Below, piece after piece: positions 1 to 16,556 of a stretch of 18,432 nucleotides of DNA (position 1 is the stretch's first letter; every line of letters starts with the position of its first letter). The notes beneath the pieces were generated by a model. The model searched no databases and was not told the DNA's origin. It saw nothing but the letters and a program-made list of their open reading frames with translations. The DNA comes from a virus, in UHGV virus genome UHGV-1652841, one strand, 5' to 3'. A program made the position numbers and the translations under genes.

Positions 1-1
1 G

Positions 2-406
2 ATTATCACCATCGACGCCAGTGTGATGAAGGGCCGCAAGATTCATGTTGTTCCTATGTCAGACCAGGTGGATGAACTTCTCACTACGCTAAGCTCCATC
101 ACTAAACCAGTATCAGAGTTTGTTTTTGCCGGGCGCAACGATAAGAAGAAGCCAATCTGCGAGAACGCGGTATTGCTTGTGATCAAACAAATCGGCTATG
201 AAGGTCTGGAAAGCGGTCACGGATTCAGGCATGAATTCAGCACGATTATGAACGAGCACGAATGGCCTGCTGACGCTATTGAAGTGCAACTGGCACATGC
301 CAACGGAGGTTCTGTACGTGGAATTTACAACCATGCTCAGTATCTCGATAAGCGCAGAGAAATGATGCAATGGTGGGCGGACTGGCTTGATGAAAAGGTG
401 GAGTGA
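2..406 (+). CDS. Tyrosine integrase, P4-like family, C-terminal part (gene begins left of the window)
   Basis: Translation ...HGFRHEFSTIMNE...QLAHANGGSVRGIYNHAQYLDKRREMMQWWADWLD resembles the catalytic C-terminus of P4-type integrases (R-H-R-Y region, NHAQYL/RREMMQ motif). Frame is open from position 2; stop at 404-406. Confidence 0.85.
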   Translation: MITIDASVMKGRKIHVVPMSDQVDELLTTLSSITKPVSEFVFAGRNDKKKPICENAVLLVIKQIGYEGLESGHGFRHEFSTIMNEHEWPADAIEVQLAHANGGSVRGIYNHAQYLDKRREMMQWWADWLDEKVE

Positions 407-728
407 TCCACCTTAACCCATATCGAATAGAACAAAGTCTTGCAATCCAGTGCAAAGCTTTGTGCGCCTAAGTTTTGTCTAAGCGTTCTACTGAAAACAT
501 AGTAAAATCGGTAACGGCTGGAAATCATTCAATACTCGCACTATCGAAAGTTCGCCAGCCAGCCGTGGCACGTTCTTGCATACGACGTGCTACGGTTTCA
601 TTTATCTCCCGAAACTCCATTTGGATTTATCCGGTGCGCCGTAAAACCCCGTCCTTCAGGGCGTGGAGGATGTCAACTGGACGCACTGGAGCTGGTCGAT
701 ACTTCCGGTGCGCCAGATATTGAATGGC

Positions 729-1337
729 CTACGCCTCCGGCAGTTCAGGCCAGATGACATCCGGCGCGGTGCTGGTATCTGTTGCCGTCACCGCGTCAAT
801 GTAATCCAGCGCAGCGTTAAGTCGGGCGGTTTCTGCCTGCGTCAGATTCCGTCCGGCCCGTAATTTCAGCTGAATCAGACTAATGGAAGCCATTGCTGCA
901 TCAATCAGTGACTGGCGCTTTACTTCTGCCGCGTCTAGTGCGGCACTATGCTGTGCATCGGCATCCGTCACCCATTTTTGGCCATCCCATTTGTCGTATG
1001 GCGTATCAGGTGCTTTGGTGGTGGTTCCTTCCGGGTATTCTCCCAACTGTGAAACTGCCACAGGTTCTCCAGTTTCCGTGCTGTAAACGGTTTCGCCGCG
1101 ATGGTCTGCAACATATTCCCAACCGGTCAAATCAGCCGTCCGGCAAACAGCAAAGCCGTCCTTTTTGCTGATTGGCGCATCCACGCACGAATTGCCTGGA
1201 ACACCAACGCCAACGGGAAGATATTCAACAGATAAACCGATATATTCACGCGTCACGCCATCGTAATTATAAACAGTGATAACCCCAGATTCCGTGGCGA
1301 ACCCGTTTTCATCCAGGTTGATTTCTTTTGTGGTCAT
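729..1337 (-). CDS. Tail fibre assembly protein (Tfa chaperone)
   Basis: 202 aa; position directly downstream of the fibre gene; C-terminus ...DVIWPELPEA typical of Tfa proteins; start ATG overlaps the fibre stop. Confidence 0.8.
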   Translation of the reverse strand: MTTKEINLDENGFATESGVITVYNYDGVTREYIGLSVEYLPVGVGVPGNSCVDAPISKKDGFAVCRTADLTGWEYVADHRGETVYSTETGEPVAVSQLGEYPEGTTTKAPDTPYDKWDGQKWVTDADAQHSAALDAAEVKRQSLIDAAMASISLIQLKLRAGRNLTQAETARLNAALDYIDAVTATDTSTAPDVIWPELPEA

Positions 1338-2203
1338 TATACCGCCCTTACAATGTAGTTGAATGCAATGTTGCGCGGACGGGTTTCTGAGCCGCCCACT
1401 TCGACGGTTGGTCGAGTATCGAAATTTACTACTTTCCCGCTTGCATCTGCTGAAACAAGGTCATAGCCCCCAGTAGGATCAAAGGCGCTTAACCCCCATG
1501 TGCGATCAAAGTTATGGCTGTGGGATTTAAACTCATCGTTCTGAGTAGACAGTAAACCGCGGCCATTATCCACACCGCGCCCGTCATCCCAGCCACGAAT
1601 AAACTCACCACGTAAATCAGGCAATTTATTTGTCGGATAAGCCTTTGCTAGTTCCGGATATTCTTCAGCAGAAAAAGCCGCACCATTGCATTTCAACCAG
1701 CCTGTTGGCGGAGTGGCTGAAGGCCACGGAACAGGCACCCCAACAGGTAATGCTGAGCCTTCTCCCAAACCAAGGTATGTGAGAATATCAGCAATAGTAT
1801 TTTTCCCAATAATGTCACGGCCAACAGAAGTTAAATCAGTCTGCGCTGCTGTATCATTTCCAGTGAAATATGGGAGTTTATTTGCACCTGTTGCGAGCCC
1901 AGCTAATGCCGACAGCGTGGCATCAAGCGCCTGGAAATCTTTCCCGAAAGCGGTCCCCATTTTGGATATAAACCCGTTCAGGTCTCCATCATCAAGCACA
2001 TCCAGCCCGCTTTTGTTGGCGGTGTACTGCGCCAACGCTGCCGCGATAAAGCTGGCTTGCCGAATAGCTTTGTTGACCTGTGCGCTGGATGCTTTACCTG
2101 CCGTAAACCCTGAAAGCAGAGCCGGAAGTGCTTCCCAGTCAGCTTGTGAGGTGACGTTAGCGTTCGGATCAAGCGCGAAAGGTTTAAAGTTGTTTATTGC
2201 CAT
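1337..2203 (-). CDS. Tail fibre protein with collar-type domain
   Basis: Contains GWLKCNGAAFSAEEYPELAKAY...LPDLRGEFIRG (tail collar signature) and C-terminus NIAFNYIVRAV. Probable start is the second Met (MAINNF...), coupled to the upstream stop by TAATG; the listed ORF extends to 2221. Confidence 0.8.
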   Translation of the reverse strand: MAINNFKPFALDPNANVTSQADWEALPALLSGFTAGKASSAQVNKAIRQASFIAAALAQYTANKSGLDVLDDGDLNGFISKMGTAFGKDFQALDATLSALAGLATGANKLPYFTGNDTAAQTDLTSVGRDIIGKNTIADILTYLGLGEGSALPVGVPVPWPSATPPTGWLKCNGAAFSAEEYPELAKAYPTNKLPDLRGEFIRGWDDGRGVDNGRGLLSTQNDEFKSHSHNFDRTWGLSAFDPTGGYDLVSADASGKVVNFDTRPTVEVGGSETRPRNIAFNYIVRAV

Positions 2204-2883
2204 TAGAGTATTGTCCCCCATGCTCCAACATCGAACCCGCCGATGTATTCGTTATCCATATCAAACCCAAAGAATTTAGAGCCTTCTGACGGTGTTTCTA
2301 CCGAAGGCGTTTCAACATCACCGGCCCATACGCCAGCTGATTTAACGGTGAGATAGCCCTGTTTGATAGCGGCGATCAGTTCGAGAGACACATCAGAAAT
2401 ATCAGTTTCAGGGAAAACCCAGACCGAAATCGTCATGTCCTGGTTGTCGACGATCTGCATCCTCAGGCCTGAGCCTGCGGTAGCAGCGTCAAGGATGGGA
2501 GGCAGAGAGTCGTTCCGACCGTCCCAGTTGTTGATAGCGATTTTCGCTTTCAGAATGATGCGGTACGTCTCATCGCTTAGCGTCGTATAGCCAGAATCAG
2601 GATCATATGGCCCTTGCCAGATGCCCTGGTCATACCCAAGCCCGTCAGTGTCCAAGCTGAAATAAACTCCGCTAATTGGCTGGCTGACTATGCGACTGCG
2701 TCCGATCCACAGACCGAGGATGTCGAGCTGTACACCGACAGCAGTATCGATATCGAAGGCTGTTATAAGCCCTGACATAGTGCTGGACACATCAATCAGC
2801 GGGCAGGTGCTCAGATCTATATGGTCAAAAAAGAGTGGCTTGGTAGCGTGGTAGTTAGTGATCAGTTCGGTGTATTTGCTCAT
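2203..2883 (-). CDS. Tail/baseplate protein, gpI-like (DUF2612-type), fibre attachment
   Basis: 226 aa; sits between the baseplate J-like gene and the fibre gene, as Mu gp48 / P2 gpI does; overlapping start/stop coupling with neighbours. Confidence 0.55.
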   Translation of the reverse strand: MSKYTELITNYHATKPLFFDHIDLSTCPLIDVSSTMSGLITAFDIDTAVGVQLDILGLWIGRSRIVSQPISGVYFSLDTDGLGYDQGIWQGPYDPDSGYTTLSDETYRIILKAKIAINNWDGRNDSLPPILDAATAGSGLRMQIVDNQDMTISVWVFPETDISDVSLELIAAIKQGYLTVKSAGVWAGDVETPSVETPSEGSKFFGFDMDNEYIGGFDVGAWGTIL

Positions 2884-4079
2884 GAGGTCACCGTGATACT
2901 GATATTCGCGGTGCTACAGGACGCTGAAGCATCATAGGCAATATCAATGTTTGATGCCGATACGCTGCCAGACGACTTACCGATCAGCAGGTCGGTAATA
3001 TCGTAATAGCGGGCATTCCCGCCGCTCACAACGCCGAGGTTTGCCGGGGAATAAATACGGCTCAGCAGAACGTCGTCGCCAATTGTTAGGCCATTTATAT
3101 AATCGGCAACAGCCTGTTTAATCTGCTCGCCGATTTGAGAGGTATAGCCGGTAAAAACTTTCAGGGTAATGGCTACGAAAATTGGCACATCGGTAGAGCG
3201 CGAAAAACTGATGACGTGAGGATTACCATAAGTATCCGGCACTGTGACAGAAGTTTTACCGTAAGTTGCGGTTCCCTGCCCTTTATTCCCCCTGATGGTC
3301 TGGGCTATCTCGGTAACATCCCCTCCATCGACGATGGCGGAAATAGAGTGTGGCGGCAGCCCGTTGCTGTCGGTTGCCCCAGTATCGTTCTTATATAGTT
3401 TGTGACGTGTCACGCCAGCAACATTAGCGATAGCACCGTCGACACCTTCAAACGGTGTGATCGATGGTAGCGCGACGCTTTGCCCCTGCCGAATGCGCAG
3501 CTCTGCGTCGGTTTCGGCTGGTGAACCGACAGTAGCCGCAACTGGATTGGTTACCGACACCCAACCTCGGGTCGGGGTGTTGATAGTGGTAATAGTCCCG
3601 GCCAGCGCCGCAACCGAACCGCTATTCGCACATGTGGCCGTCACCAGCACAGTACCATCAACGCCGATCGCTACACTTGCGGGAAAATTCCAGATAATGC
3701 CGTTTTTATCCCGTGCGGAGCCATTCGTGATAGTCGTGCCTGCCGTACCGGTTAACAGAAGGTCAGCAGTAGAGTTTGTCGCTACTTTTCGCGTGATCCC
3801 GTTAATTTTCACATTGCTGCTAAGCGCTGCGGCCTGCGCTGTCGTCGGTGAAAAAGAGTTGTAGATCCCGATAGCGGTGTTGTTAGCGTCATGCACGGCA
3901 AGAGCCACCAGCGCGACCATCTGCCCGTCTTTGCTGTCTGGTTCGAGGTAGGCATCACTACCGTAAATCTGCCTGAAATAGCTGGTCAGTGTATCTAGGA
4001 TTGTCTGGTAATCAGGCGCACTAATCCCCTGGGCGGTTACCGTTGCCGATAGCCCCAGCGTGTCGAGGTTCAAAGCCAT
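2880..4079 (-). CDS. Baseplate J-like protein (Mu gp47 / P2 gpJ family)
   Basis: 399 aa; order in the tail operon after the W-like gene; N-terminal region resembles baseplate J family; ATGA-type overlaps on both sides. Confidence 0.75.
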   Translation of the reverse strand: MALNLDTLGLSATVTAQGISAPDYQTILDTLTSYFRQIYGSDAYLEPDSKDGQMVALVALAVHDANNTAIGIYNSFSPTTAQAAALSSNVKINGITRKVATNSTADLLLTGTAGTTITNGSARDKNGIIWNFPASVAIGVDGTVLVTATCANSGSVAALAGTITTINTPTRGWVSVTNPVAATVGSPAETDAELRIRQGQSVALPSITPFEGVDGAIANVAGVTRHKLYKNDTGATDSNGLPPHSISAIVDGGDVTEIAQTIRGNKGQGTATYGKTSVTVPDTYGNPHVISFSRSTDVPIFVAITLKVFTGYTSQIGEQIKQAVADYINGLTIGDDVLLSRIYSPANLGVVSGGNARYYDITDLLIGKSSGSVSASNIDIAYDASASCSTANISITVTS

Positions 4080-4433
4080 TTATGCCTCGCTTGTTACAGT
4101 CGTCTGGCCGTAGATTGTGTCAATGGAGGAAGTGAAGGTGACGCGACGGCTGGTGCCGTCATAATTGGTATCGAAGGAAAGAATCGACAGAACGCCCGGT
4201 GTATCCTGTATGCGTTCGCGTATAGCCAGGATGTAGACATCTGATCGCTGCTTCCCAAGCACTGACTGAACATACGGCGTGCCTTCCGTCAGATCGAGAA
4301 ACCACTGACCGCGCCACAGCTCGAAACGGGTTTTTACGGCCTGGGCGACACATTCCGGACTGTCGATAAGGAAAGTATCGTCACCCTGGCCGAAAGTGTA
4401 ATCGCCTTCAGTATCTTCGCGACGGTATCGCAT
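4080..4433 (-). CDS. Baseplate wedge protein, gpW / Mu gp46-like
   Basis: 117 aa ORF between the spike and J genes; size and position match the W-like baseplate component. Confidence 0.55.
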   Translation of the reverse strand: MRYRREDTEGDYTFGQGDDTFLIDSPECVAQAVKTRFELWRGQWFLDLTEGTPYVQSVLGKQRSDVYILAIRERIQDTPGVLSILSFDTNYDGTSRRVTFTSSIDTIYGQTTVTSEA

Positions 4434-5173
4434 TATTGCGGCCCTCCGGTAGTTCCCCCGCCAGTCTGTACTCCGCCATGTTTATGCGTGGCGACACTGA
4501 TACCAGAAGCTGTTACGTCATTCGTTACCGTCACCGGCCCAAGCATCGTCGCAGTACCGCCGCTTTCGCCCATTCCCTGAGACAAGTTGCCATTAATCGT
4601 TACGTTGCCGTTCAGCGTGATAGTCGGGGATGTGATTGTCGTTCCACCTTCAGCCGTAGCTGTAAGCTGGCCCGGTGTTTTAATGGTGATGTTATGTCCT
4701 GCGGCGACTTCTACAAACGCCGCACCATCATCGGTTCGCAGCTGCGCGGCGCTGGTACTGATACCGCTGATTTTCCGTGCTTGCGACTGTGGGCCAACGA
4801 TGGCGAACGCATCAGATAAGTCATGCTGGCGCGGGTCGACGGTCTCCTGCACGCCGCCGCTCTGCCACCAGAAATCGATGCAACGGTCGGCAAAGAGCAG
4901 CAGGCACTCGTCGCCTTCTTTAACCGGAAAAGTCAGCGTACAACCGCCGCCACGCGGGAAGATAACCGGCACATCCACCAGCGGTTTTAATTCGGTGGAG
5001 CCATCGCCAACGATACCGCGAAGCGCTACCTCTACCGTGCAGGTAACAGTGTCAGGATCGAACGACTGAATGATGCCGGGCATCGCTACGCGCATCTGGG
5101 TAGACACCGAATCGGCAATGGCCTGCGCGGTCTGCTGCTCACCGCCGATCTGTGATTGAGTTGGAATTGGCAT
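4433..5173 (-). CDS. Baseplate spike / assembly protein V-like (Mu gp45 family)
   Basis: 246 aa; N-terminal region (GIIQSFDPDTVTCTVEVAL...) followed by a Gly/Thr-rich repetitive C-terminus (TITSPTITLNGNVTINGN...GGGTTGG) typical of gpV/gp5-like spikes; GGGGG Shine-Dalgarno-like stretch 5 nt upstream. Confidence 0.75.
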   Translation of the reverse strand: MPIPTQSQIGGEQQTAQAIADSVSTQMRVAMPGIIQSFDPDTVTCTVEVALRGIVGDGSTELKPLVDVPVIFPRGGGCTLTFPVKEGDECLLLFADRCIDFWWQSGGVQETVDPRQHDLSDAFAIVGPQSQARKISGISTSAAQLRTDDGAAFVEVAAGHNITIKTPGQLTATAEGGTTITSPTITLNGNVTINGNLSQGMGESGGTATMLGPVTVTNDVTASGISVATHKHGGVQTGGGTTGGPQ

Positions 5174-5181
5174 AAAACCCC

Positions 5182-5208
5182 CATAAAAAAACCAGCCGAA
5201 GCTGGTTT
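5182..5208 (-). terminator. Intrinsic terminator-like hairpin on the minus strand, immediately upstream of the spike gene start
   Basis: Perfect 8-bp stem AAACCAGC / GCTGGTTT with 4-nt loop, followed on the minus strand by TTTTTTTAT. Confidence 0.5.
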
Positions 5209-5395
5209 GGTATCAATTATCTCTTAGTAACTAAGCTACATCAGTGTGAAGTAAGGCTTTTCCGCTGCAATGGCACACATTCACAATGTGTATTAGGATA
5301 TGTTTGCAACAAGTAAGCATTGAAAATCAATTTCAGCCATGAAGCCGCCATAGAGTGGACCTGCACCATCGCATTATTGACTACAGGAGTAACAA

Positions 5396-5686
5396 ATGGG
5401 ATTTAGATTTCGTAAAAGAATCCGGATTGCGCCCGGACTCGCGATCAACATTAGTAAAAGCGGAGTAAGCACTTCAATTGGTGGTAAAGGTTCCACCATT
5501 AACATCGGGAAAAAAGGCGTAAAGATGACAAATGGCCTTCCCGGCACGGGGCTGTCGCATACCACTAACCTTTACTCTCCCGGGAAATCGACAGAAAAAA
5601 AACAACTTACTCATAAGCAAAAAATAATTAGAAACATCCTGTTCGTAATTATTGTGTTTATTATAATTAAAGCTCAATATTTTTGA
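5396..5686 (+). CDS. Small tail-anchored membrane protein with DUF4236-like N-terminus
   Basis: 96 aa; N-terminus MGFRFRKRIRIAPGLAINISKSGVSTSIGGKG...GLPGTGLS matches the DUF4236 pattern as I recall it; C-terminal hydrophobic segment ILFVIIVFIII; AGGAG 8 nt upstream of ATG; AT-rich gene on the opposite strand to the tail operon. Confidence 0.6.
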   Translation: MGFRFRKRIRIAPGLAINISKSGVSTSIGGKGSTINIGKKGVKMTNGLPGTGLSHTTNLYSPGKSTEKKQLTHKQKIIRNILFVIIVFIIIKAQYF

Positions 5687-5691
5687 CGCAT

Positions 5692-5722
5692 GCCCGCCTA
5701 TCTGGCGGGCTATTTTACTTTT
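5692..5722 (+). terminator. Intrinsic terminator downstream of the DUF4236 gene
   Basis: Stem GCCCGCC / GGCGGGC with 5-nt loop, followed by TATTTTACTTTT; lies between two convergent genes. Confidence 0.5.
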
Positions 5723-6600
5723 CGGCAGTCGTATGTTGCATACTGGCGCGGCGCGTCTATGCTGGCCTGCAACCACTGTGCGTTGAGAATAGCTTTTCCG
5801 TTGCGCTTGATGTACTCAAGCCCAACCCAGCGGCCGGGTTGATTAGTGGCAGCCATCCACTCCATCTTGATGTTATCCGGTTCCCCTTTGGTGCTACCAC
5901 CAGAGCCGATTGGGCTAATTTTTTGCGTCTCTGGTTTTGCGCCATTAATTCTGGCCCAACCATCAGCAGAAGACAGATCAATCGTATAAGGACCACAGAC
6001 TGTTTTGTAATTCACGCCAAGCTTTTCGTTACTGTGAACATTACTACTTTTCTCGTAATCAGCCTTGGCTACGTCGTTCATTTTTTGATAGATGGCAGGT
6101 TGCTTCAGCGATAACTCATTTAGCTGTTTTACAAAATTTTCTCGTGAAACCTCTGCAAGCCCCATGGGTTTTCTATCAATGATATAATCATCATAAATCT
6201 TTAATACAACAGCCGAAGAAGAAAGTTTCTTAGCTAAATCATTTACAAAATTGAGATAATTTAGCTGAGAATTATCTCTTACATCGATAGCCCTAACTCC
6301 ACCTGTGCCGTACTCATGATATGCAGCATAAAAAGCTGGTATATTCTCCGGCTTTTTATTGATTGCCTTAATCAACCCGTCAGGACCACAGATCTCGCCA
6401 CTCCAGTCAATTAGTGACTTCCCTTTAGATTTCCATGTCTGACAATCATCTGTCGATAAAATTACTATCGGCTGCCATCCTGGACGTCTTTTGTACTCAG
6501 CGTTCTGCGCGGAATTAAAGCCTGCACTCGCGCCCCCGGATAAGAGCAACCCGGAAAGAAAAAGTGCGCTATATCGAATTCCGTTCTTATTTGTACCCAC
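5710..6600 (-). CDS. Secreted/periplasmic protein of unknown function (moron cargo)
   Basis: 296 aa. GTG start immediately after the TAA stop of the hub gene, preceded by AGGAGGAAA. Predicted signal peptide (basic n-region, hydrophobic core YSALFLSGLLLSGG, ASA-GF cleavage-type site). Lys-rich and AT-rich relative to the flanking tail genes. Confidence 0.7.
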   Translation of the reverse strand: MGTNKNGIRYSALFLSGLLLSGGASAGFNSAQNAEYKRRPGWQPIVILSTDDCQTWKSKGKSLIDWSGEICGPDGLIKAINKKPENIPAFYAAYHEYGTGGVRAIDVRDNSQLNYLNFVNDLAKKLSSSAVVLKIYDDYIIDRKPMGLAEVSRENFVKQLNELSLKQPAIYQKMNDVAKADYEKSSNVHSNEKLGVNYKTVCGPYTIDLSSADGWARINGAKPETQKISPIGSGGSTKGEPDNIKMEWMAATNQPGRWVGLEYIKRNGKAILNAQWLQASIDAPRQYATYDCRKVK

Positions 6601-7668
6601 TTAATTTCCTCCTGAGCGAGCTATAGTCGACTGGCTAATCAGGTCACGAGCCCCACGCGCAAAACACATCAAATCCATGTACCACGCCTGACCTCTGGTG
6701 TCACCAGTATAATCGATAGCTTTGACGATATAAACGCCATCTGTCGCAATGCTGGCAGCCTGTGACGTTGTGCCGGTCAGTACGCGGTTGCCGTTCTCTT
6801 CTGTTTCGGTGATGCGACCGGGCGACTGTGCTATTTCGCTATTACCGAGCGCGGCGCGGTACACCGAAGCCTGATCGAGCTGGATAAGACCATTAATACG
6901 GATGTTTGGGTTTATCAGGCACCGCACGTTTACTCCGCCGCCCATCGTTTGTTGCGGCATACCGATCAGGCCAGTATCGGCATTCAACACAATGGCTTCG
7001 TGAATATATTTATCCTCCGGCACCATCTGGACCTGACCATCCACCAGCTGCCATGTCGCTTTGCACTGCGCAGCAATATTATCCATCACGTTACGGGTGG
7101 ATGAATAAATCGCACGGCCACGAGGAAACACGGTATCAGGAAAGTCACCGGTAATGCCCTGCGTCACGCCGAACGCGTTGAAATCCTGCATAGTCGCCCG
7201 GTGCAGGTCCGCAACGGTATAACCAGCGGCAAGCGTGGTGATGGTAGTCGCGTAGAGGAACGCTTCGTGGTTACTGATGGCCTGAATCAGCACCCAGGAA
7301 TCGGTGATGTTGTCCTTCCCGGTGACGGTGAAGCGAATATCACCGTCAAATATCAGGCCGTAGTTCTGACCGTTCACCTGCCCTACCTGGTCTGGTGAAA
7401 TCTCCCGGGCGACACCAACCTGGCTCGCATCAACATCCGGCGCAATACCGTCATACCCGGCAATGATGCGAATTTTTGCAAACTCCTGCCCCAGTATCTT
7501 GTTCGTGGTATCGGTCGAAAGGTTGTAAATTTTCACGTTCGCCACGCGTGGCCAGCGTGTGTCTGCCCACTCGATCTGGAACGTGACCTTAAAGTCAGAC
7601 AGGGAAACGCCCTGCCCGTTCTGGTCCAACAGTTGCAGCTCAAAATGGCGCATCCAGTTAAGAGACAT
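6601..7668 (-). CDS. Baseplate hub / tail protein (Mu gp44 / P2 gpD-like)
   Basis: 355 aa; size and position (after the tape measure and small tail genes, before the spike in the ancestral order) match the hub protein. Confidence 0.6.
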   Translation of the reverse strand: MSLNWMRHFELQLLDQNGQGVSLSDFKVTFQIEWADTRWPRVANVKIYNLSTDTTNKILGQEFAKIRIIAGYDGIAPDVDASQVGVAREISPDQVGQVNGQNYGLIFDGDIRFTVTGKDNITDSWVLIQAISNHEAFLYATTITTLAAGYTVADLHRATMQDFNAFGVTQGITGDFPDTVFPRGRAIYSSTRNVMDNIAAQCKATWQLVDGQVQMVPEDKYIHEAIVLNADTGLIGMPQQTMGGGVNVRCLINPNIRINGLIQLDQASVYRAALGNSEIAQSPGRITETEENGNRVLTGTTSQAASIATDGVYIVKAIDYTGDTRGQAWYMDLMCFARGARDLISQSTIARSGGN

Positions 7669-7670
7669 TT

Positions 7671-7976
7671 CTACTCCTGTACGAAAATGAGGTGGCTGTA
7701 TGTGCCGAGGTTGGTTTTGGTGGGCTCGTCTGGTGCGCCCTTATCGGTCGCCACCACCAGCGCGCCATCAATGCCAAGCTGTGGATATTGTCGTAAAAGG
7801 TTTACGCCGGTCAGTAGAGGTACGCCAGAGAGAAGCGCGGCACCGCCGCTATCCATCACGTCCATAATCCAGCCAGCCGCATCACGTCAGATGATCCTGA
7901 GTGTATACGTGGTATTGCCCAGCAAAACGCGGAACTGCTGATTGTCAGGAGAAAGCGGTATTTCGTTAAACTGCAT
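7671..7976 (-). pseudogene. Small tail gene with an in-frame TGA (codon 30 of 101); nonsense pseudogene or two mini-ORFs
   Basis: One continuous frame from ATG at 7976 (overlaps upstream stop as TGATATG) to the stop at 7671, just before the hub start, interrupted only by TGA at 7887-7889. Conceptual product MQFNEIPLSPDNQQFRVLLGNTTYTLRII*RDAAGWIMDVMDSGG... Confidence 0.4.
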
Positions 7977-7977
7977 A

Positions 7978-8580
7978 TCATCCCCCGAATGCTGATGTAA
8001 CGCTTCCGCCCAGCTGGCTCAGCAAGGATTCGTTTGGCGGTGTAGTGGATTTCATCCCGGAATTCTGCACCGCCGATGTGCTGACGCCATCCTGCATATC
8101 TGATTTATCTGCAACGCTAACGCTCTGCGTCTGCGACATGATCACTTCACGCAGGGTAAGCGTGCAGTTCAGCACGTTCTCGCTGGTTTTATCCGTTGTC
8201 ACCTCGATGGCTCGCACCAGCATATTGCTGTAAACCCGCTTTCCGGTCACTACATCGAACGGCACCCGAGAGGACTGGAGATCCAGTAGTTGCTGATAGG
8301 TCTCTTTCGGGCTAAGTCCGGCGCTGAGGCCGATTGACGATGTATCAATGAAGTCCAGCAACGAACCGCCACCTGCGAAGCCGCATTCCATCGTGACTTC
8401 GCTGGGGCGCTTATACGCATGATCGGCGATGAAACCCGACGCGCTATTCGTTGTTGGCTTCTCCACCGGGTGCTCAGTAATTTCGAGCGCATCAGAATGC
8501 TTTTCGGAAACGACCACGCTGGGGATCAGCAGGCCAATTCGCCGGGATTGCTGGCGAAAAATCGCTGATAAAATATCCAT
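7978..8580 (-). CDS. Tail protein occupying the position of the Mu gp43 (DNA circulation-type) gene
   Basis: 200 aa; start ATG overlaps the tape-measure stop (TAATG). Family assignment is uncertain; the call is mainly positional. Confidence 0.45.
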   Translation of the reverse strand: MDILSAIFRQQSRRIGLLIPSVVVSEKHSDALEITEHPVEKPTTNSASGFIADHAYKRPSEVTMECGFAGGGSLLDFIDTSSIGLSAGLSPKETYQQLLDLQSSRVPFDVVTGKRVYSNMLVRAIEVTTDKTSENVLNCTLTLREVIMSQTQSVSVADKSDMQDGVSTSAVQNSGMKSTTPPNESLLSQLGGSVTSAFGG

Positions 8581-10217
8581 TATCTCGGTCCTGCGGGGAG
8601 TTGCTGGGTTAACTGTGAATTCACGCCCTTTTGACGGTCAACAGTCAAACGGGCAGCCTCGCGCGGATCGGAAACGCCGTGGATGTTAATGTTCGTTTCC
8701 TGCTGAATCACCGGGGCGCTGGTGGGCATATTGCTCATCACTTTCGGAATGTAGTTGCGCGTTTCCTGCGGCATTAGCCCCATTCCATAACGCTTAACAT
8801 TCCCGATCCCCCAGTTATATGATGCCAGTGCTTTGCTAAGGTCTCCGCCGTTCTGCCGCAACAGCTGGCTGAGGTACTTAGCGGCTGCCTGAGCTGACTT
8901 TTCCGGGTCGAATACATCATTCCCACGCAGGCCCATGTCGCGCGCCGTGCCATCCATAAACTGAAACAGTCCTTTCGCGCCTGCGCCGGATATGGCGAAC
9001 TGGTTACCACCCGACTCGGTGATCGCCACGCTTTTCAACAGGCCAGCTGGCAGCTGATAAAGCGACTCCAGTTTATTGAACATTGGCCCCATCCAGTCGA
9101 GCAATACCTTGCCCTGGGCCGTCGCCTGAGGTCGCTTAACCGACTGCGCTCGCTGCTCCGGCTCCAGTCCCATCTCCTGAATTTTTCGCTGGATTTGCTC
9201 ATCAGTGAAAAAGTCTTTGCCGGGATTTTCCTTTCTCAGCGCCTCATATGCCTGCTGCCTTTCAGGTACGATATTGCTGCCTATACCGCCAATCGACGCC
9301 ATTTCTTCACTGGTGGTCGGCGTATTGTTGGCAGGAATGAACATAAGCAACCATGGATTCTTGATTGCCAGCTGTGCGATCCCCTGCGCCAGCTTACCCA
9401 GCCCACCAATAGAGCCGCCAATTGCCTTACCAAGCCCCATAAATCCGGCGACAAGTCGCCCGATGCCAGTGAGCATGGAGACCAGCTTCGCACCAGCCAG
9501 AAAGCCAAACAGGATGGTGAGCGTATTTTTCCAGCCGCCGAGGTTGTCCTTGAGCTCCAGAAACTTATCGCGCAGCCACTTGAACACCTTCTTTGCCTGC
9601 TCAATTTCTGGCTGCCATTTGGACCAGTCAATCAGGCTTTTACCGCCCTCTTTCCACGTCTGGTAATCGTCGTACAGCAATCCGATCGCCAGAATCAGTG
9701 TGGTGATAATTCCAATCGGGGATTTCAGGAACGCAGAATTAAGCAGACGCCATGCGACCAGTAGAGCACCGAATATTTTCAGCAGATTTTTACTGCCATC
9801 GTCAAGACGCTTCCACCAGTCGATGACAGAGCCAGCGCCCTGTATCAGCCGCCACGCCATTCTCGTGAATGCGTTCGCAAGCCAGATCACGCCTTTAATA
9901 ACTCTGGTCAGCGTCTCTTCAATCTTCGGGAAATTGTCGAGGATGCGCCGCCGCAGGCTGTCCAGCGAACCAGCCAGGCCACCAGCGAGGTTTGAGCCGA
10001 TCTTGTCCCGCATGATGCCGAACAGCGACGTAAGCCCGCGCATGGACGTCATGAATTTGTTGGACTGAACAGCCGCTTTATCAGCGTTGAACCCTGTCTT
10101 TTGCAGCATCGACTGGTAATCGGCGGTAAAGCCATTCATGCCGCGCCGCATCGCCATCAGCGTGTTTTCATCGATGCCAAGCATCTGCGCGTATTGTTTC
10201 GCGCGGTAATACGGCAT
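8580..10217 (-). CDS. Tail tape measure protein with C-terminal lytic transglycosylase (SLT) domain
   Basis: 545 aa; central hydrophobic segments; C-terminal SLT-like motif ...VAITESGGNQFAISGAGAKGLFQFMDGTARDMGL...YNWGIGNV; position upstream of baseplate genes. Upstream context is a deletion junction, so the N-terminus may not be native. Confidence 0.75.
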   Translation of the reverse strand: MPYYRAKQYAQMLGIDENTLMAMRRGMNGFTADYQSMLQKTGFNADKAAVQSNKFMTSMRGLTSLFGIMRDKIGSNLAGGLAGSLDSLRRRILDNFPKIEETLTRVIKGVIWLANAFTRMAWRLIQGAGSVIDWWKRLDDGSKNLLKIFGALLVAWRLLNSAFLKSPIGIITTLILAIGLLYDDYQTWKEGGKSLIDWSKWQPEIEQAKKVFKWLRDKFLELKDNLGGWKNTLTILFGFLAGAKLVSMLTGIGRLVAGFMGLGKAIGGSIGGLGKLAQGIAQLAIKNPWLLMFIPANNTPTTSEEMASIGGIGSNIVPERQQAYEALRKENPGKDFFTDEQIQRKIQEMGLEPEQRAQSVKRPQATAQGKVLLDWMGPMFNKLESLYQLPAGLLKSVAITESGGNQFAISGAGAKGLFQFMDGTARDMGLRGNDVFDPEKSAQAAAKYLSQLLRQNGGDLSKALASYNWGIGNVKRYGMGLMPQETRNYIPKVMSNMPTSAPVIQQETNINIHGVSDPREAARLTVDRQKGVNSQLTQQLPAGPR

Positions 10218-10323
10218 GTTGTTGAGCTTTTGCCCAACCCGCCCTGATAGCTGCCTGTGTGGCGTTTAAATCTTTCAGGTACTCACGGGCAAACAGCTCT
10301 TGTTTGTCGGTGAGCTTTGCCAT
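10174..10323 (-). pseudogene. Terminase small subunit, N-terminal stub (about 28 native residues, then out-of-context sequence)
   Basis: MAKLTDKQELFAREYLKDLNATQAAIRAG matches the conserved N-terminus of P27-type terminase small subunits; after AAIRAG the frame reads WAKAQQHAVLPRETIRADAWHR-stop. No terminase large subunit, portal or capsid genes follow. Confidence 0.6.
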
Positions 10324-10675
10324 TGTTGGCTCCGTTTATCCGTTAAAAGGGATATCAGTTAAGTTATCCCGTGCAGGGTATAAGCCATTGTCGAGACCAC
10401 TCATTGAATGGCCTCTGCAATAACCGATGTCTTTCCATCAGCCCGCCACCACAAAGAATCTTTTTTGCCATAAGGCTGGAGGTTCATCTTTCAGTGGCTG
10501 CCAGTGTTATTTCCCCACTTACTGGCTTGGGTTGCTTCGTGGTACTGCCGTAACTGGTGGTGCACAGATTTAGTTAAATCTGTTCTCGCCTGAACTATCT
10601 TTTACATACCCGGATTGTGGGGATGTAAATCACGGTTTCATTATCAAGCCCACCCGTAGATGGGCTTTGTAATGG

Positions 10676-10933
10676 CTACTTCGCTTTTGCTTCCGCTCGC
10701 TTACGCCGGCGCTCTTCTTTCCTCTCGGCTTTTGCCATGTCCATGAATGCCTGCATGATCGAGTTCCGCATCATGTAGCTAACAAAGTGATGATTGACAC
10801 AGCCGTTGAGGCGCAGCTGCTCGCCAAACTCATCCACCGAGGCCAATGCTTCCCTCATGCCCTTCTCGCCTTTCATGAACTCTGAGAAGTCGCGCCCCGC
10901 TCTGGAGGCGCATTCAATGACACGATCACTCAT
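10676..10933 (-). CDS. Hypothetical small phage protein
   Basis: 85 aa ORF with basic C-terminal tail; start overlaps the stop of the upstream KilA-N gene; followed by a 7-bp-stem hairpin (AAGCCCA / TGGGCTT). Confidence 0.45.
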   Translation of the reverse strand: MSDRVIECASRAGRDFSEFMKGEKGMREALASVDEFGEQLRLNGCVNHHFVSYMMRNSIMQAFMDMAKAERKEERRRKRAEAKAK

Positions 10934-11427
10934 CCCGGAAGCCCGGGGATCGTAATCTGCAGCTGGTTAGCCAGGGAGTTAATCTCAGCGACCAACACTG
11001 GCTTCGTATAGCGCCATGCTGCCAGCCCTTGTCCGCAGAAGCTCGCCATGTCTTTCTTCTGGTCAAACTCATGACATTTCATGTTGAGCTGCGCACTTAA
11101 GCTGTTGCGATGCTGAAGTTCTCCGGTGAAGTAGTCATCGAGGACTTTATAGGCCGCGTACTTGAACCCGGGGTTTAACCAAGCCGCATAATCGTAAGCA
11201 ACAAACTTCCCGCCATATGTTCCACCGTGTACACCGCGCTCAGTAAAAACCACAGATTCGTGGTTTTTCTCCAGCTCGGCTAAGAACTCTTTGGTCTGCT
11301 TGTTTCGCAGGTAGTGGTAAGGCGATTCAGATTCACTTTTACCACTAGCTTTCCACATATCAGTGAGGCAGATCATGCCATCTTCACCGATACGAATTGG
11401 TTGATTGAAGAGGGTTAATGATTTCAT
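10930..11427 (-). CDS. KilA-N domain protein
   Basis: 165 aa; N-terminal ...QPIRIGEDGMICLTDMWKASGK...GGTYGGKFVAYDYAAWLNPGFKYAAYKVL fits the KilA-N pattern. Confidence 0.7.
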   Translation of the reverse strand: MKSLTLFNQPIRIGEDGMICLTDMWKASGKSESESPYHYLRNKQTKEFLAELEKNHESVVFTERGVHGGTYGGKFVAYDYAAWLNPGFKYAAYKVLDDYFTGELQHRNSLSAQLNMKCHEFDQKKDMASFCGQGLAAWRYTKPVLVAEINSLANQLQITIPGLPG

Positions 11428-11541
11428 AGCGTGTACCTACTCTTTGAAATGAACCTTTGCCGCACAGGAAACCAGCCCACCGAGGCTCGCCAGCACTAAC
11501 TGGTATCCTCAAAGGCCCATTCCAAAGGGGCAGGTTCGGTG

Positions 11542-11597
11542 TAAAAAACATGCGTTGCGGTACGCATTTATTGCAAAAAGCCCCGCATCGCGAGGCT
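11542..11597 (-). terminator. Two tandem intrinsic terminators downstream of the lysis cassette
   Basis: Minus-strand hairpin GCCTCGC-GAT-GCGGGGC followed by TTTTTG, then hairpin ATGCGT-ACCGCA-ACGCAT followed by GTTTTTTAC. Confidence 0.5.
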
Positions 11598-11628
11598 CAT
11601 TAAATGGACTTTGTGATTTGCAAAAAAA

Positions 11629-12096
11629 TTATTTCAGGCATTGCGTCCTGATGTATTCCTGCAGGTAGTTAACCTGCGCGGTTATCTTGTCGATTCCACT
11701 TCGTAGACGGTAATAATTGAGTTCAGCATCTGCTGTAAGTCTTGGGCTTTCTCCATCGCCCATGCTGCTGGCTCCGGTCGTTGACTTTGCACAGGTGGCG
11801 GCGACTTGCAGGCGCTTACGGCCAGCAATGACATCGCTATGCAGACGCTCAATGGTTTCTTTCGCATCAGCCAGTTCTCCGGTGTATTTGGCATCCAGTG
11901 CAGCGACATCACGCTGGCGGGTCTGCATGTCTTTAATGGTGGCGGTCGCCAGGAGGAGTTTCTCAGTGGCCTTATCGCGCTGGTCTCTGTAAGTGATGGC
12001 GTTGTCGCGGTAGTGGTTCACGAAGAAAGCCAGTGCGCCGATTAACGCCAGCACCAGCAACTGCAGCCAGTAACGCTTAACCAGTGCGCTAATCAT
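11629..12096 (-). CDS. Rz-like i-spanin
   Basis: 155 aa; N-terminal TM segment then ...[14 protein letters not shown]...[22 protein letters not shown], very close to lambda Rz; ends ...YIRTQCLK; ATGA overlap with endolysin. Confidence 0.85.
11682..11867 (-). CDS. Rz1-like o-spanin lipoprotein, embedded in the +1 frame of Rz
   Basis: Embedded ORF; probable start [20 protein letters not shown] (lipobox VSAC) followed by a proline-rich segment [12 protein letters not shown], as in Rz1. Confidence 0.7.
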
Positions 12097-12542
12097 GACA
12101 GGAACAGAGCTCGCTCTGCCTTGCGGCGATTCGTGAGCCCCGGCATCACCTTTCCGCCTGATTTATTCCAGCGCAGAAATTCATCTGCCGCGCCTTTTAT
12201 ATCGCCAGCATTCAGCTTTTTCAGCAGTGTAGATGTGGAAAGAGCACGCGACCCAACGTTGTAAGCGAACGACACCAGTGCGTCGAACTGGCCTTGTGTC
12301 AGCTTCACCCTGACAACTTTCAGCACGTCATTCTCATAACCAACAAGCCCTGTTTTCAGAAGCCTGTCAGCGGTTTGCTGGTCGATAGTCATACCGCGCT
12401 TTACTGGCTTTCCGTCAACCGGATGGGTCCAGCCATAGCCGATGGTCCACGGCGCATCTCCCGTTCCGGGGTCGGGGTAAGCAGTCAGCCGACAACCTTC
12501 AAATTTTTTTATCAGAGCAATTCCGTCAGGACTGGTTTGCAT
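12093..12542 (-). CDS. Endolysin, T4-lysozyme-like (GH24) family
   Basis: Resembles P22 gp19-type lysozyme (…[18 protein letters not shown]...GYG...[11 protein letters not shown]). Likely start is MQTSPDG (12542), overlapping the holin end; the listed ORF extends to 12614. Confidence 0.85.
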
Positions 12543-12858
12543 CGTCAACTCCCGCCTTTTTTGCTGCAAGTTTTTTAATAAGATTGCCGATCGAATCGGT
12601 GCCGATGTATCCAATAAAGACGCTGGCTATGTAGGCGAGGTTGCTGCTCAGGCCGATAAAGTCCAGAAGGTCACGAACGAACCAGGCAATCATCGCGCAC
12701 ATCAGCGCATCAATTAGCGTTTTTGTTACCGCGCCGCCGTTATAGCGACCACGCAGATACGCCATGATAAAAGCCAGCATTGCACCAATACCCTGCTCCT
12801 TGGCGGCAAGTAGCGCAGCGATGAAATCTTGTTTGTATGGCATTTTCATAGGCCTCAC
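12526..12858 (-). CDS. Holin (lambdoid class, dual-start motif)
   Basis: 110 aa; ...[26 protein letters not shown]...[16 protein letters not shown]... closely resembles lambdoid-prophage holins; N-terminus MRPMKM offers alternative starts; GGAGGT SD upstream. Confidence 0.85.
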
Positions 12859-13057
12859 CTCCGATTTTCCGGATGGTGCTGTGTGTGTGTTTGAAAAGGG
12901 TCAGGCTTCACGGGCTGGATTTATCAACAAAGCACGTAGCGGATGATTCCCGTGAGCCTGAAATTGATGAATATGTCTGAAATAACTAGACCATTAGTAA
13001 AACAACTCGATAAATGTGGTTAAATGAGACTACGTTCTCACAACTTAATTAGTACCA

Positions 13058-13228
13058 ATGATTATCAAGCCCTGCCCCTACTGCGGAAAGTTAATTAACC
13101 CAGAATCACTTGTGTGTAGCCACTGCCGGATAGTGAATCCTTTTGTGAAGGCCAGCAGAAGAGAAAAAGCGAAGAATGTATTAGTAATCGCTCTCGTTGC
13201 TGCTTTTTTAATTTGGATGATTCTCTGA
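13058..13228 (+). CDS. Small zinc-ribbon, tail-anchored membrane protein (not in the supplied ORF list; under 60 aa)
   Basis: 56 codons: MIIKPCPYCGKLINPESLVCSHCRIVNPFVKASRREKAKNVLVIALVAAFLIWMIL; CPYC...CSHC zinc-ribbon spacing plus a C-terminal hydrophobic helix; AT-rich context; weak SD. Confidence 0.4.
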   Translation: MIIKPCPYCGKLINPESLVCSHCRIVNPFVKASRREKAKNVLVIALVAAFLIWMIL

Positions 13229-13259
13229 GTTGCCAGTTTTCAATGAAGATAATGCGGGC

Positions 13260-13286
13260 AAAAAAAGCCTGCTCGGACGAACAGGC
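13260..13286 (-). terminator. Intrinsic terminator (minus strand) in the Q-to-lysis intergenic zone
   Basis: Stem GCCTG / CAGGC with 10-nt loop, followed on the minus strand by TTTTTTT. Confidence 0.4.
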
Positions 13287-13665
13287 ATGAAAAATAACAA
13301 TACCGTCAAGGAGGTGGCGCCGGGTGCCTCCCGGTGGAACAGCCCCAGCCGACTAGTTCCGCGCAAACAAACCTGGACAAAAAAGTTTGACTGGACGCCC
13401 CGCCGCATAGGGGGATTCACCACGAACCAAAAGATAAAATCATCCGGTGACCGGGGCAATATCTAACCGGAACTTTTCAGAATCACTTATTGTTTCCTGG
13501 AGAGTACATGAGCGTTGGTGAATTCACGTGATGCTTTTGGATGAGCGCTGAACCCAAAGGTCAGTATTTTCACACAGCAATTTTGCAAAAAGCAGCGCCC
13601 ATTCAAAACCAGGTCGCTTTCCAGTCACTCCGGGGAACCCATCATCGCAGACTGGAAAGCTTTTA

Positions 13666-13694
13666 CTGGAGCGGGCAAAGGAATCGAACCTCTG
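13666..13694 (-). other. tRNA 3'-end-like fragment (T-arm, acceptor 3' strand, CCA); possible att-core or tRNA remnant
   Basis: Minus strand reads AGAGGTTCGATTCCTTTGCCCGCTCCA: canonical GGTTCGATTCC T-loop and a ...CCCGCTCCA 3' end resembling a Gly-tRNA terminus. No complementary 5' acceptor strand within about 80 nt upstream. Confidence 0.3.
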
Positions 13695-13703
13695 ACGCGC
13701 AGC

Positions 13704-13958
13704 TTATTTCCAGCTTTCGCCATTTAAGGCTGAAAGCACTGTTTGATGTGTTACACCAAACATTCTCCCTAGCCCTCTGGCTCCATAAACCTTATGTCGT
13801 GGAATGTAGTTTTCTCTGATGAACTGGACGCTGTCCATTGTTAGCTTGCTCATACCATTCAGCTCACCAGCTACTAAGTAGCTAAGGTCAAATTTGGTTT
13901 TCTGAATGTGGCATGCAGAACATAGTAGTTGGCACTTTTCAACCTCAGCATAAAACAC
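13704..13958 (-). CDS. HNH endonuclease-like remnant with C-terminal HTH-like region
   Basis: 84 aa, GTG start right after an in-frame TAG; begins inside an HNH-type zinc motif (…LLCSACHIQKT…) without the upstream HNH residues; C-terminus ...FIRENYIPRHKVYGARGLGRMFGVTHQTVLSALNGESWK resembles HTH tails of phage HNH proteins. Confidence 0.35.
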   Translation of the reverse strand: MFYAEVEKCQLLCSACHIQKTKFDLSYLVAGELNGMSKLTMDSVQFIRENYIPRHKVYGARGLGRMFGVTHQTVLSALNGESWK

Positions 13959-14165
13959 CTAATCTGAGTGATAGTGCATCTCGCTTACATTTGCTGATTT
14001 GGTGGAAGGGTCTATGTGGTCAAACTGAAGCGAATATTCGGATCCGCAACTCGCGCAACGACCACCCAACTTTTCCACGGTCTTAGCAAGCCTAGCCCTT
14101 CGATTAAGATAGTAATCTTTGCTCGGCATTTACCACCTCTACCATTGGAGCTAAACCAGCATGTT

Positions 14166-14240
14166 TGGCGGGATAGCGTGGACTCGAACCACGATAAGAA
14201 GGTTAACAGCCTTCCGTAATGACCTTTATACGACTGACCC
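14166..14240 (-). tRNA. tRNA-like element, anticodon GTT (Asn-type), imperfect acceptor and D stems; possibly degenerate
   Basis: Minus strand: GGGTCAG-T-CGTA-TAAAGGTCAT-TACG-GAAGG-CTGTTAA-CCTTC-TTAT-CGTGG-TTCGAGT-CCACG-CTATCCC-G-CCA. Perfect anticodon and T arms and encoded CCA, but two adjacent mismatches in the acceptor stem and no nucleotide 26. Lies 60-90 nt downstream of the Q gene. Confidence 0.35.
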
Positions 14241-14330
14241 AAATAAAAAAGCCACCGTTGCAACTTAAGAGTCACTAACGGCAGCTTATGCGAATAGTGT
14301 TGCTCATTTGCTCAATGATGTCAACACGTT

Positions 14331-14819
14331 CTATGCTACATGTTTAATTTTCTCTACACGTTTCCGGTTTTTAAACGCACTATCCAGAACCGGGTAAATC
14401 ATAAACAACGAGGCATTGAGGATTTCGTCAACTTCCCGACGACAGGTTGCGAGCGATGGTTTTTGAATGCGCCCTCCGCCCCGGCATAACATCTTGCGAG
14501 GTCTTGCGACGCGATGATAGTAAGATGCAATGGCGTGCTTGGAAGATCCATGGGCGTAGTAGCTGAGGAGGATGCCAAAGGCTTTCTTGTCAATGTACAT
14601 GACGGAATCGACGACCTGAGAAATCAACATTCCATCATCATCATTGCACATTGGCCTTGTCATAACTCTTCCCGGCTCTACGCTCTCCATGAACTTCGCT
14701 ATTACGCTGCTCATGCGCTTTTCAAGACGACCTGAATAAACCCATGCCCCCCACAGTTCAAGCCAGCCATTCAGCCACTCGTGCTGCTCTTTGGTGAGGT
14801 TTAGTTCTCTTATGCCCAT
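14331..14819 (-). CDS. Late-gene antiterminator Q (QuuD-like family)
   Basis: 162 aa; LELWGAWVYSG...RPMCNDDDGMLISQVVD...ILLSYYAHG matches the pattern of lambdoid-prophage Q proteins (…RWGAWAA…RPQCCDDDAMII…DYYV…); position after ninH/rusA and before the lysis genes. Confidence 0.7.
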   Translation of the reverse strand: MGIRELNLTKEQHEWLNGWLELWGAWVYSGRLEKRMSSVIAKFMESVEPGRVMTRPMCNDDDGMLISQVVDSVMYIDKKAFGILLSYYAHGSSKHAIASYYHRVARPRKMLCRGGGRIQKPSLATCRREVDEILNASLFMIYPVLDSAFKNRKRVEKIKHVA

Positions 14820-15004
14820 CGTCTTCCCCTCTTGCCCTGTTTGACCATCAGGACGCCGTTAACTATTACGTGACGCTCGCCTTTGCTGTCTCGGTTGTAC
14901 TTAAGCACTGTTCCTCTTGCGCAGGAAAGCATCCTTGCCACTTCGGTCTGATTGCCTCGTGTCTGGATAAGAAGCTCTGGTATCGTTTGAATTGTGGCGT
15001 TCAT
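14810..15004 (-). CDS. ninH: NinH-like protein
   Basis: 64 aa; …TIPELLIQTRGNQTEVARMLSCARGTVLKYNRD…HVIVNGVLMV… closely parallels lambda NinH. Confidence 0.7.
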   Translation of the reverse strand: MNATIQTIPELLIQTRGNQTEVARMLSCARGTVLKYNRDSKGERHVIVNGVLMVKQGKRGRRWA

Positions 15005-15363
15005 ACGTTCTCCAGTTCGGTGATTTTTATTCCAAGCCGTCCGCCTGGTACTTTCACGCCACGAATTACGCGAATGTCATCGAATTGCTCGTCGTCTTCC
15101 GCAAATCCGGCGTGGATAAGGGAGTCGAGTAAACCTTTCAGGATGTTGTCGAGGTCGCGGCGGCGGGAGTCTGGAACGTCTGCGATGACTTTGATGCGGA
15201 GTCGTGATTTGGTGAAAATGTCTAACTTAAGTTGGCGGATGATTTGCTGAACGTCTTTTCGGTATTTCTGGCCTTTATCGCTGATGTAGTATTGGCTTCC
15301 CCGTCTTCGCCAGTAGGTATTCACCGACGGCGGGTATGGAAGCACAAACTGATATTCGTTCAT
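15001..15363 (-). CDS. rusA: Holliday junction resolvase RusA
   Basis: 120 aa; …LPYPPSVNTYWRRRG…DVPDSRRRDLDNILKGLLDSLIHAGF..DD.QF.DIRVI…GGRL.I.ITE… is the RusA family signature with catalytic Asp residues. Confidence 0.9.
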   Translation of the reverse strand: MNEYQFVLPYPPSVNTYWRRRGSQYYISDKGQKYRKDVQQIIRQLKLDIFTKSRLRIKVIADVPDSRRRDLDNILKGLLDSLIHAGFAEDDEQFDDIRVIRGVKVPGGRLGIKITELENV

Positions 15364-15650
15364 GACTTAATCTTCCCCTCCTTCAGCAGTATCGCCTGCG
15401 TCCTGATCACGCCTTCGAGGTGGTAAAGCCTGGCGTCTTTGTTGTCGAGATTATGGGTGCGTCGGTCGATTTCATCGTGACACGCGCTACAAGCCCATGC
15501 GCCGATCAGGTCGTCAGGCTTCATTCCCGTTCCGCAAATTCCAGCCATCCGGTAATGTGCCAGAACTGTAGTTTCAGGGTTGCCATTGCATACGCCGTAA
15601 ATACGTACCTGGCATTCTCTGCCGCGCGCTTCTTTGCGTAGGTTAGCCAT
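15360..15650 (-). CDS. DUF1364-family protein (YbcO-like, putative metal-dependent nuclease)
   Basis: 96 aa; MANLRKEARGRECQVRIYGVCNGNPETTVLAHYR…CSACHDEID… matches YbcO-type nin-region proteins. Confidence 0.8.
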   Translation of the reverse strand: MANLRKEARGRECQVRIYGVCNGNPETTVLAHYRMAGICGTGMKPDDLIGAWACSACHDEIDRRTHNLDNKDARLYHLEGVIRTQAILLKEGKIKS

Positions 15651-16535: not shown

Positions 16536-16556
16536 CTTGTTTTCCTCGCACGTTCT

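Follow-up and report, generated by a model that had tools for sequence, protein, structure and literature searches.

The spacer between intS and tfa in a decayed lambdoid prophage reads as a patchwork of reused phage pieces, with a probable seam inside the integrase gene

The closest described counterparts of the locus analyzed here are the prophage CPS-53 (KplE1), which lies at argW in Escherichia coli K-12 and encodes IntS and TorI, and the free phage HK633, in which the order is torI, att core, intS, spacer and tail-fibre gene, as in the IntS/argW module of HK620 and Sf6. The right end of lambda and HK97 runs tfa, spacer, sib, attP and int. A further point of comparison is provided by the invertible tail-fibre switches of Mu (G/Gin), P1 (C/Cin) and e14 (P/Pin), together with that of the argW prophage of E. 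coli PEC122, all of which have a crossover site in the fibre gene. For integrases of the IntS family, a 16-nt core has been described that overlaps the 3′ end of argW and sits in the promoter region of intS, 5′ of the gene (PMC2951348).

We analyzed a stretch of 18,432 nucleotides of viral DNA (UHGV-1652841; hereafter, the window), whose features are collected in Table 1. The window reaches only the C-terminal part of intS, the N-terminal part lying beyond its left edge. The C-terminal 134 aa of this integrase match IntS of E. coli CX12 (385 aa; residues 252-385) at 98% identity; the complete CX12 protein combines Arm-DNA-bind_3, Phage_int_M and Phage_integrase, a P4-like set of domains. As a first-pass annotation had noted, the 3′ end of a P4-type integrase lies about 320 bp from tfa (the intS stop ends at 406, the tfa stop is at 729, and the gap, 407-728, measures 322 bp), and a lambda-type int fragment, 97.3% identical to HK97 int (Pfam Phage_integrase, E 2.2e-9), occupies the other end of the window. 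The element is bracketed by two integrase types, the intS type on the left and the lambda type on the right. When complete E. coli genomes were searched, window 1-520 had a best nucleotide identity of 96%, and the whole element was found in none of them.

Table 1. Coordinates of features in the window and of the IntS/argW core in relatives
Feature	Position	Strand	Remarks
intS internal part, residues ~252-357	1-320	+	98% aa identity to CX12 IntS; missing in sister copies
Last 86 bp of intS	321-406	+	Integrase stump at tail-fibre end of lambda-site prophages
intS 3′ part (P4-like)	Stop TGA 404-406	+	Pfam Phage_integrase, E 8.8e-24
intS 3′ flank	407-480	+	Imperfect hairpin 432-463 with T-rich tail; weak candidate terminator for intS
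Two-hairpin module	502-604	No strand	Covariation support; end of late region in hundreds of lambdoid phages
Hairpin A	516-521 pairs with 555-560		
Hairpin B	563-573 pairs with 585-595		T-rich run after
pin stop and last three codons (GDK, stop), position in relatives	597-609	-	Stump only in window
Filler	610-676	No strand	Holds 11-mer copy 1; nearly identical in HK97, S51 and FJ_Ec_21
Second, inverted tfa stump (tfa′), last 27 codons	677-757	+	Caudo_TAP positions 111-131 of 131, E 5e-4
tfa, 202 aa	729-1337	-	Caudo_TAP, E 1.2e-30
Collar-domain fibre gene	1337-2221		Follows tfa
Din-invertase-type crossover site (pix/gix-like), TTCTCCCAAACCAAGGTATGTGAGAA	1760-1785	+	Inside tail-fibre gene
STnc100 small RNA	13256-13448		
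tRNA-Asn	14166-14240		
Lambda/HK97-type integrase internal fragment	18249-18432	+	Pfam; HK97 int; joined to truncated replication gene
IntS/argW core, 16-nt CTGCAGGGGACACCAT, 15-nt form CTGCAGGGGACACCA	argW 3′ end, immediately 5′ of intS		

Relatives of the window show how this end is usually built. In E. coli S51 and CX12, tRNA-Arg (argW) is followed by intS, a short spacer, tfa, the fibre gene, a DUF2612 gene and baseplate J, and CX12 continues past the baseplate with tail, head, terminase, lysis and Q genes. In HK633, torI and intS are followed by the same spacer (window 1-604, 93 to 94% identical) and then by the fibre gene; unlike in the window, stf stands directly at ~604, with neither tfa nor a tfa′ stump. 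CPS-53 shares with the window the 3′ part of intS and its 74-bp flank (window 1-480, 94.6% identical) and also has a convergent tfa pair, tfaS and yfdK, but it carries at 480/481 about 3 kb with the O-antigen glucosylation genes yfdGHI plus yodE, lacks 481-676 and has its tfa pair flipped relative to the window, whereas the window lacks torI, attL and attR. HK97 shares window 502-1372 at 85% identity; the right end of lambda and HK97, and that of the ENA contig NODE_832 described below, runs into sib and the lambda core, whereas the window runs into intS. Across K-12, HK633, HK97, phi80 and Stx phages, homology boundaries recur at the same places, namely, 480/481, 501/502, ~604 and 676/677.

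The first-pass annotation had proposed that the gap may be the boundary between two different integrated elements. Against this, intS, the spacer, tfa and the baseplate/tail genes form one contiguous argW layout in CX12 and S51, and the arrangement is also found in the free phage HK633. With a probability that we put at about 0.8, the gap is an ordinary spacer between convergent intS and tfa, assembled as a patchwork of reused pieces, and the seam described below arose by exchange or as a chimera. The spacer arrangement would then be that of KplE1/CPS-53- and HK633-type lambdoid (pro)phages, and the pieces of the patchwork would be the intS flank (407-480), the two-hairpin module (502-604), the filler (610-676) and the tfa′ stump (677-757). 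The gap is an ordinary case of lambdoid mosaicism. Within the intS flank, a terminator scan returned a terminator-like match at 450-467, and the flank folded no better than its shuffles (z = -1.2).

The two-hairpin module is widespread: the segment that holds it, 481-690, has matches in 296 phage records, and carriers of the module include phi80, HK97, HK106, HK75, phiP27 and many Stx phages. For a covariation test, 81 distinct variants from phages and prophages were aligned on a structure set by hand, because indels in hairpin B made the RNAalifold consensus poor. Double-sided changes occurred in 37 cells compared to 10.2 in shuffles, and none of the 500 shuffles reached 37; cells in the module stems were paired in 91.6% of cases, versus at most 64% when the partners were slid. 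Hairpin B alone had double changes in 6 of its 11 pairs. On the plus strand, at least four T residues were present in the 6 nt after hairpin B in 54 of the 81 variants; this run is weak in the window copy (TTTCATTTAT), for which a simple terminator scan made no call. On the minus strand, GAUUUUAC follows hairpin A, and the minus-strand fold had a z of -2.5. Counts of G-U and A-C (65 versus 55) revealed no strand bias, so the hairpins could function in the DNA itself or on either strand. From these features, the module probably represents back-to-back terminators between convergent integrase-side and tail-fibre-side transcription, and it would stop transcription of intS arriving from the left and that of pin or the tail-fibre operon arriving from the right. 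The module is not catalogued in Rfam, where the search gave only a sub-threshold partial match to CssrB.

Two other functions for the gap were weighed against that of an ordinary spacer. The first-pass annotation had offered, besides an element boundary, the att region of a tandem insertion, and more generally the gap might serve one of the two integrases as attP, attL or attR. Such a site might be suspected from the HK633 GenBank record, which labels the homologue of window 502-582 “attP,” from the K-12 ykgJ-ecpE intergenic region, which is 92% identical to window 502-588 (87 bp), and from the presence of an 11-bp direct repeat within the gap. The cores themselves argue otherwise. The 15-nt form CTGCAGGGGACACCA sits in argW, 5′ of intS, in K-12 and S51, and CX12 and PEC122 have tRNA-Arg followed by intS in the same layout; in HK633 the exact argW core is found between torI and intS, where published work places it for integrases of this family, and its location 5′ of intS in K-12, S51 and HK633 agrees with the earlier description (PMC2951348). 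This core is absent from the whole window, the gap 407-728 included, with up to two mismatches allowed, and the lambda core (GCTTTTTTATACTAA) is absent anywhere in the window; the sister contigs carry the lambda core 212 bp beyond position 321 and again adjoining ybhC. A tblastn search with TorI found no torI excision-factor gene in the window, whose far end has the lambda-type int fragment instead. The two-hairpin module, moreover, also occurs in phages with other integrases and insertion sites (phi80, HK97 and Stx phage 1717), and the annotated att core of HK97, identical to that of lambda, lies ~190 bp past the module. An attachment site in the gap is by now largely refuted, and we give it hardly any weight. 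The gap thus compared appears not to be an att region and is best read as an ordinary, widely reused phage spacer; the site used by IntS would lie 5′ of intS itself, beyond the window. The HK633 “attP” feature (L001 3502-3582, with the true argW core at L001 2073) is probably a misannotation, since the same module is found in phages with different integrases and insertion sites. The label rests on resemblance to the K-12 ykgJ-ecpE intergenic region, and that similarity is real. In K-12 the module stands alone between ykgJ and ecpE, as an 87-bp copy (L013 3725-3811). The presence of an integrase gene beside tail-fibre genes, with a short repeat in the intervening DNA, is by itself no evidence for an att site or for tandem elements; in the IntS family the att site lies on the opposite side of the gene from the spacer, and a false lead is removed.

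The gap might also code for a small RNA similar to CssrB, or for a small protein, and we consider this improbable. CssrB is a small RNA of Shigella flexneri 301 that was detected by Northern blotting and whose 3′ end was set by terminator prediction (PMC3071730). Its Rfam model (RF02799) partially matches the minus strand of window 564-627, and hairpins A and B covary; the terminal hairpin of CssrB does resemble hairpin B. However, the match scores 32.2 bits against a gathering threshold of 76 and comprises the terminal hairpin only, with 133 model positions missing, so that the window lacks the body of the RNA. A scan of the gap found no promoter-like site, and ORFs of the gap had no family match apart from the tfa stump.

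The right half of the gap contains remnants of coding sequence. The first-pass annotation had seen no convincing ORF in the gap, which holds with one exception: the plus strand of 677-757 codes for the C terminus (27 residues) of a second tfa, with a match to Caudo_TAP. This tfa′ stump, translated as LDALELVDTSGAPDIEWPTPPAVQAR followed by a stop, shares 29 nt with the 3′ end of tfa. In five other records (L047, L059, L084, L094 and L101), which have an intact tfa, this DNA is an ordinary part of the coding sequence, and NCBI PGAP annotates the homologous stretch as a partial tfa in S51 and FJ_Ec_21. To its left, pinE of PEC122 ends inside the T run after hairpin B, and the homology to the window ends at 609. 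We considered 610-676 as a pin or tfa stump, but only the GDK-stop and a possible GVS match were seen and the reading was rejected past 609; this filler had no match when compared with pin, stf and tfa. In one related record (L080, 3541-3660), 25 bp are missing between the ATTTATC direct repeats at 600-606 and 625-631, just upstream of the first 11-mer copy, and this difference looks like a slippage deletion or a duplication.

The 11-mer TCCGGTGCGCC is present as a direct repeat at 630-640 and 704-714, as had been reported. An exact direct repeat of at least 11 nt arose in 12 of 2,000 dinucleotide shuffles of the gap (0.6%). When the whole window was shuffled, 29% of the shuffles held such a repeat pair within 100 nt, so the repeat is only weakly beyond chance. 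The second copy corresponds to the T-S-G-A-P codons of the tfa′ stump, and the first lies in the filler; the pair does not appear to be a target duplication. A reading of the first copy as a third tfa stump (frame 3, DLSGAP and a stop, then EDVNWT) is suggestive.

A possible origin for these remnants is found in E. coli PEC122, which carries at the same position a complete invertible tail-fibre switch. Its order is intS, the module, pinE (minus strand), a crossover site, an alternative fibre tip, tfa′ (plus strand), tfa (minus strand) and the fibre gene; within the fibre gene is the second crossover site, inverted relative to the first, and the two sites flank the switch. The window resembles this and the other invertible switches in having a crossover site in the fibre gene, a fuzzy match with 4 mismatches to the PEC122 site beside pin, and shares with the PEC122 switch the convergent tfa and tfa′ at the same position beside intS. 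Unlike these systems, it lacks an invertase (tblastn with PEC122 Pin, E up to 1, found none in the window), a second crossover site (the window has the one at 1760-1785 compared to two in PEC122) and the alternative fibre tip, and therefore cannot invert. What it retains is one crossover site, the tfa′ stump and the position of the last three codons of pin. From this, ancestors of the element would have carried the switch here, with pin, the second crossover site, the alternative fibre tip and tfa′, and the window lineage would have deleted it, locking the fibre in one orientation; we infer that the gap is what remained after the deletion. The C-terminal half of tfa is homologous, in flipped orientation, to K-12 tfaS and PEC122 tfa′, and the exact tfa protein was found on 24 contigs. 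For many relatives, the homology has a start or end point at 1759 or 1784; the fibre tip together with tfa (729-1785) thus behaves as a swappable cassette.

The seam proper appears to lie not in the gap but at 320/321, inside intS. Window 321-18432 is 100.000% identical to the ENA contig NODE_832, and a JGI contig and a contig of ERZ914957 are 100% identical to the window over the parts that they cover. In all three, identity begins exactly at 321, and every contig with 100% identity to the remainder of the window departs from it across 1-320. NODE_832 reads, in its left part, ybhC, the lambda core (attL), the int fragment, the truncated replication gene, the truncated helicase gene, Q and the lysis genes, so that the lambda core and ybhC lie beyond the lambda-type int fragment; its right part reads tail genes, fibre gene, tfa, the gap and the last 86 bp of intS. 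Past this intS stump come 21 bp, sib, the P arm, the lambda core (attR) and ybhB-bioA, where the chromosomal flank is 99.8% identical to K-12. The head genes are deleted. Sister copies of this exact element are all located at the lambda site, with lambda attL and attR, and look-ups of the exact tfa, fibre and truncated helicase proteins returned lambda-site copies only; the antirepressor protein was too widespread to discriminate. The element is, on this comparison, most plausibly a decayed lambda-site prophage whose native left end would read intS stump, sib, attR and ybhB. As all sister copies have sib after 321, window 1-320 is foreign to the element. The suggestion of a boundary between two elements thus stands in one respect, in that foreign DNA adjoins the element, and falls in another, in that the join is within intS; the first-pass interpretation as a whole is partly supported.

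Four further places have sib joined to the end point at 321, namely, L003, L004, L007 (a different prophage type) and the chromosome of E. coli FJ_Ec_21, where a prophage ~86% identical has the same 321 end point with a differing linker. A joint shared with a prophage of ~86% identity must be old, and because NODE_832 is identical to the window over 18.1 kb, positions 1-320 would have been acquired recently. The seam looks like homologous exchange, not site-specific recombination, and would be best explained either as an assembly chimera or by homologous exchange, of recent date, with a complete copy of intS; in the latter case the stump would have been extended to a longer intS, as comparison with the sister copies suggests. 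Mismatches of window 1-480 to five intS alleles showed no step in their distribution at 320/321. An exact 60-mer across 320/321 had no match in genome contigs or viral contigs and, in metagenome contigs, gave one unrelated contig at 94%; a 30-mer with the window-specific codon hit, among viral contigs, one P22-like prophage (95%, with gtr genes), which is not the source. No plasmid was found to hold the junction, and a search for homologues of the IntS fragment yielded contig-end fragments only.

In K-12 orientation, the lambda-site stump lies on the minus strand and the argW copy of intS on the plus strand. Exchange would have proceeded through the 86-bp integrase stump and the spacer, which are present as inverted copies at 0.81 Mb (lambda site) and 2.47 Mb (argW), and with copies in this orientation it would invert the 0.81-2.47 Mb segment (1.66 Mb), whose two ends, from the position of dif, we take to be nearly equidistant from the terminus. 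The resulting order would be argW, intS, gap, tfa and so on to int fragment, attL and ybhC, and the window fits this order. We offer only tentatively, at somewhat less than even odds, the reading that two resident prophages recently exchanged with a 1.66-Mb inversion and, separately, that 502-604 may constitute a bidirectional terminator or RNA element, as yet uncatalogued, that marks where modules meet in hundreds of lambdoid phages. Alternatively, a second phage, of the IntS type, may have inserted by homology. The join of 1-320 to 321 could instead be an assembly artefact at a repeat, as the 3′ end of intS and the spacer occur at both argW and the lambda site. Junction 320/321 is in no other record among the contigs, plasmids and complete E. 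coli genomes searched, and three contigs (L008, L009 and L010) end within the gap, at window 512, 520 and 580, where an assembly would be expected to break if the stretch were repeated in those samples. The sequence itself bears no mark of a chimera, its reading frame is intact and real exchanges between prophages are common; we judge an artefact unlikely, though a real contender. Much less probable is a faithful single prophage with two integration modules, of which the lambda-site copies would be deletion derivatives. Both forms are one event apart and the intS frame is open across 320/321, as this would have it, but the joint of truncated intS and sib at 321 is common to prophages ~86 to 89% identical and to a second prophage type; it predates the 100%-identical pair, and so the recent event added 1-320 and did not remove it. 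The preferred reading, an ordinary patchwork spacer with a seam by exchange or chimera, makes the junction at 320/321 a small, concrete case of shared debris letting prophages recombine, and the seam matters mainly if the source genome really has the predicted inversion.

Integrase stumps of this kind are nested in other genomes, beginning at 346 at the dacD site, at 439 in HK106 and PM7 and at 502 in HK97. Together with the two-hairpin module, they supply reusable landmarks for the tail-fibre end of lambdoid prophages. An intS stump matching window 132-479 was also found on ~92-kb plasmids of S. flexneri and E. coli (H126-H128), with a DUF2612 tail gene annotated under the match in two of the three listed records; these are possibly phage-plasmids.

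Elsewhere in the window the element is eroded at several points. At a deletion joint, 18248/18249, an O-like replication gene that lacks its N-terminus is fused to the middle of the lambda-type int. With this deletion, the immunity region, early-left genes and xis were lost; iterons of the origin (TTGGACAACCG repeats) are still present at 17985-18060. The DnaB-like helicase gene (16535-17576) encodes 339 aa compared to 458 aa in relatives and directly adjoins ninF, which points to a second internal deletion. At 8580-10323, a 51-aa fragment of the small terminase overlaps the tape-measure/SLT gene, of 545 aa versus 755 aa in CX12; with the head and proximal tail genes deleted, the prophage is defective. 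The 1.5 kb that separate Q from the holin gene contain an STnc100 small RNA (71.7 bits, above threshold) and a tRNA-Asn.
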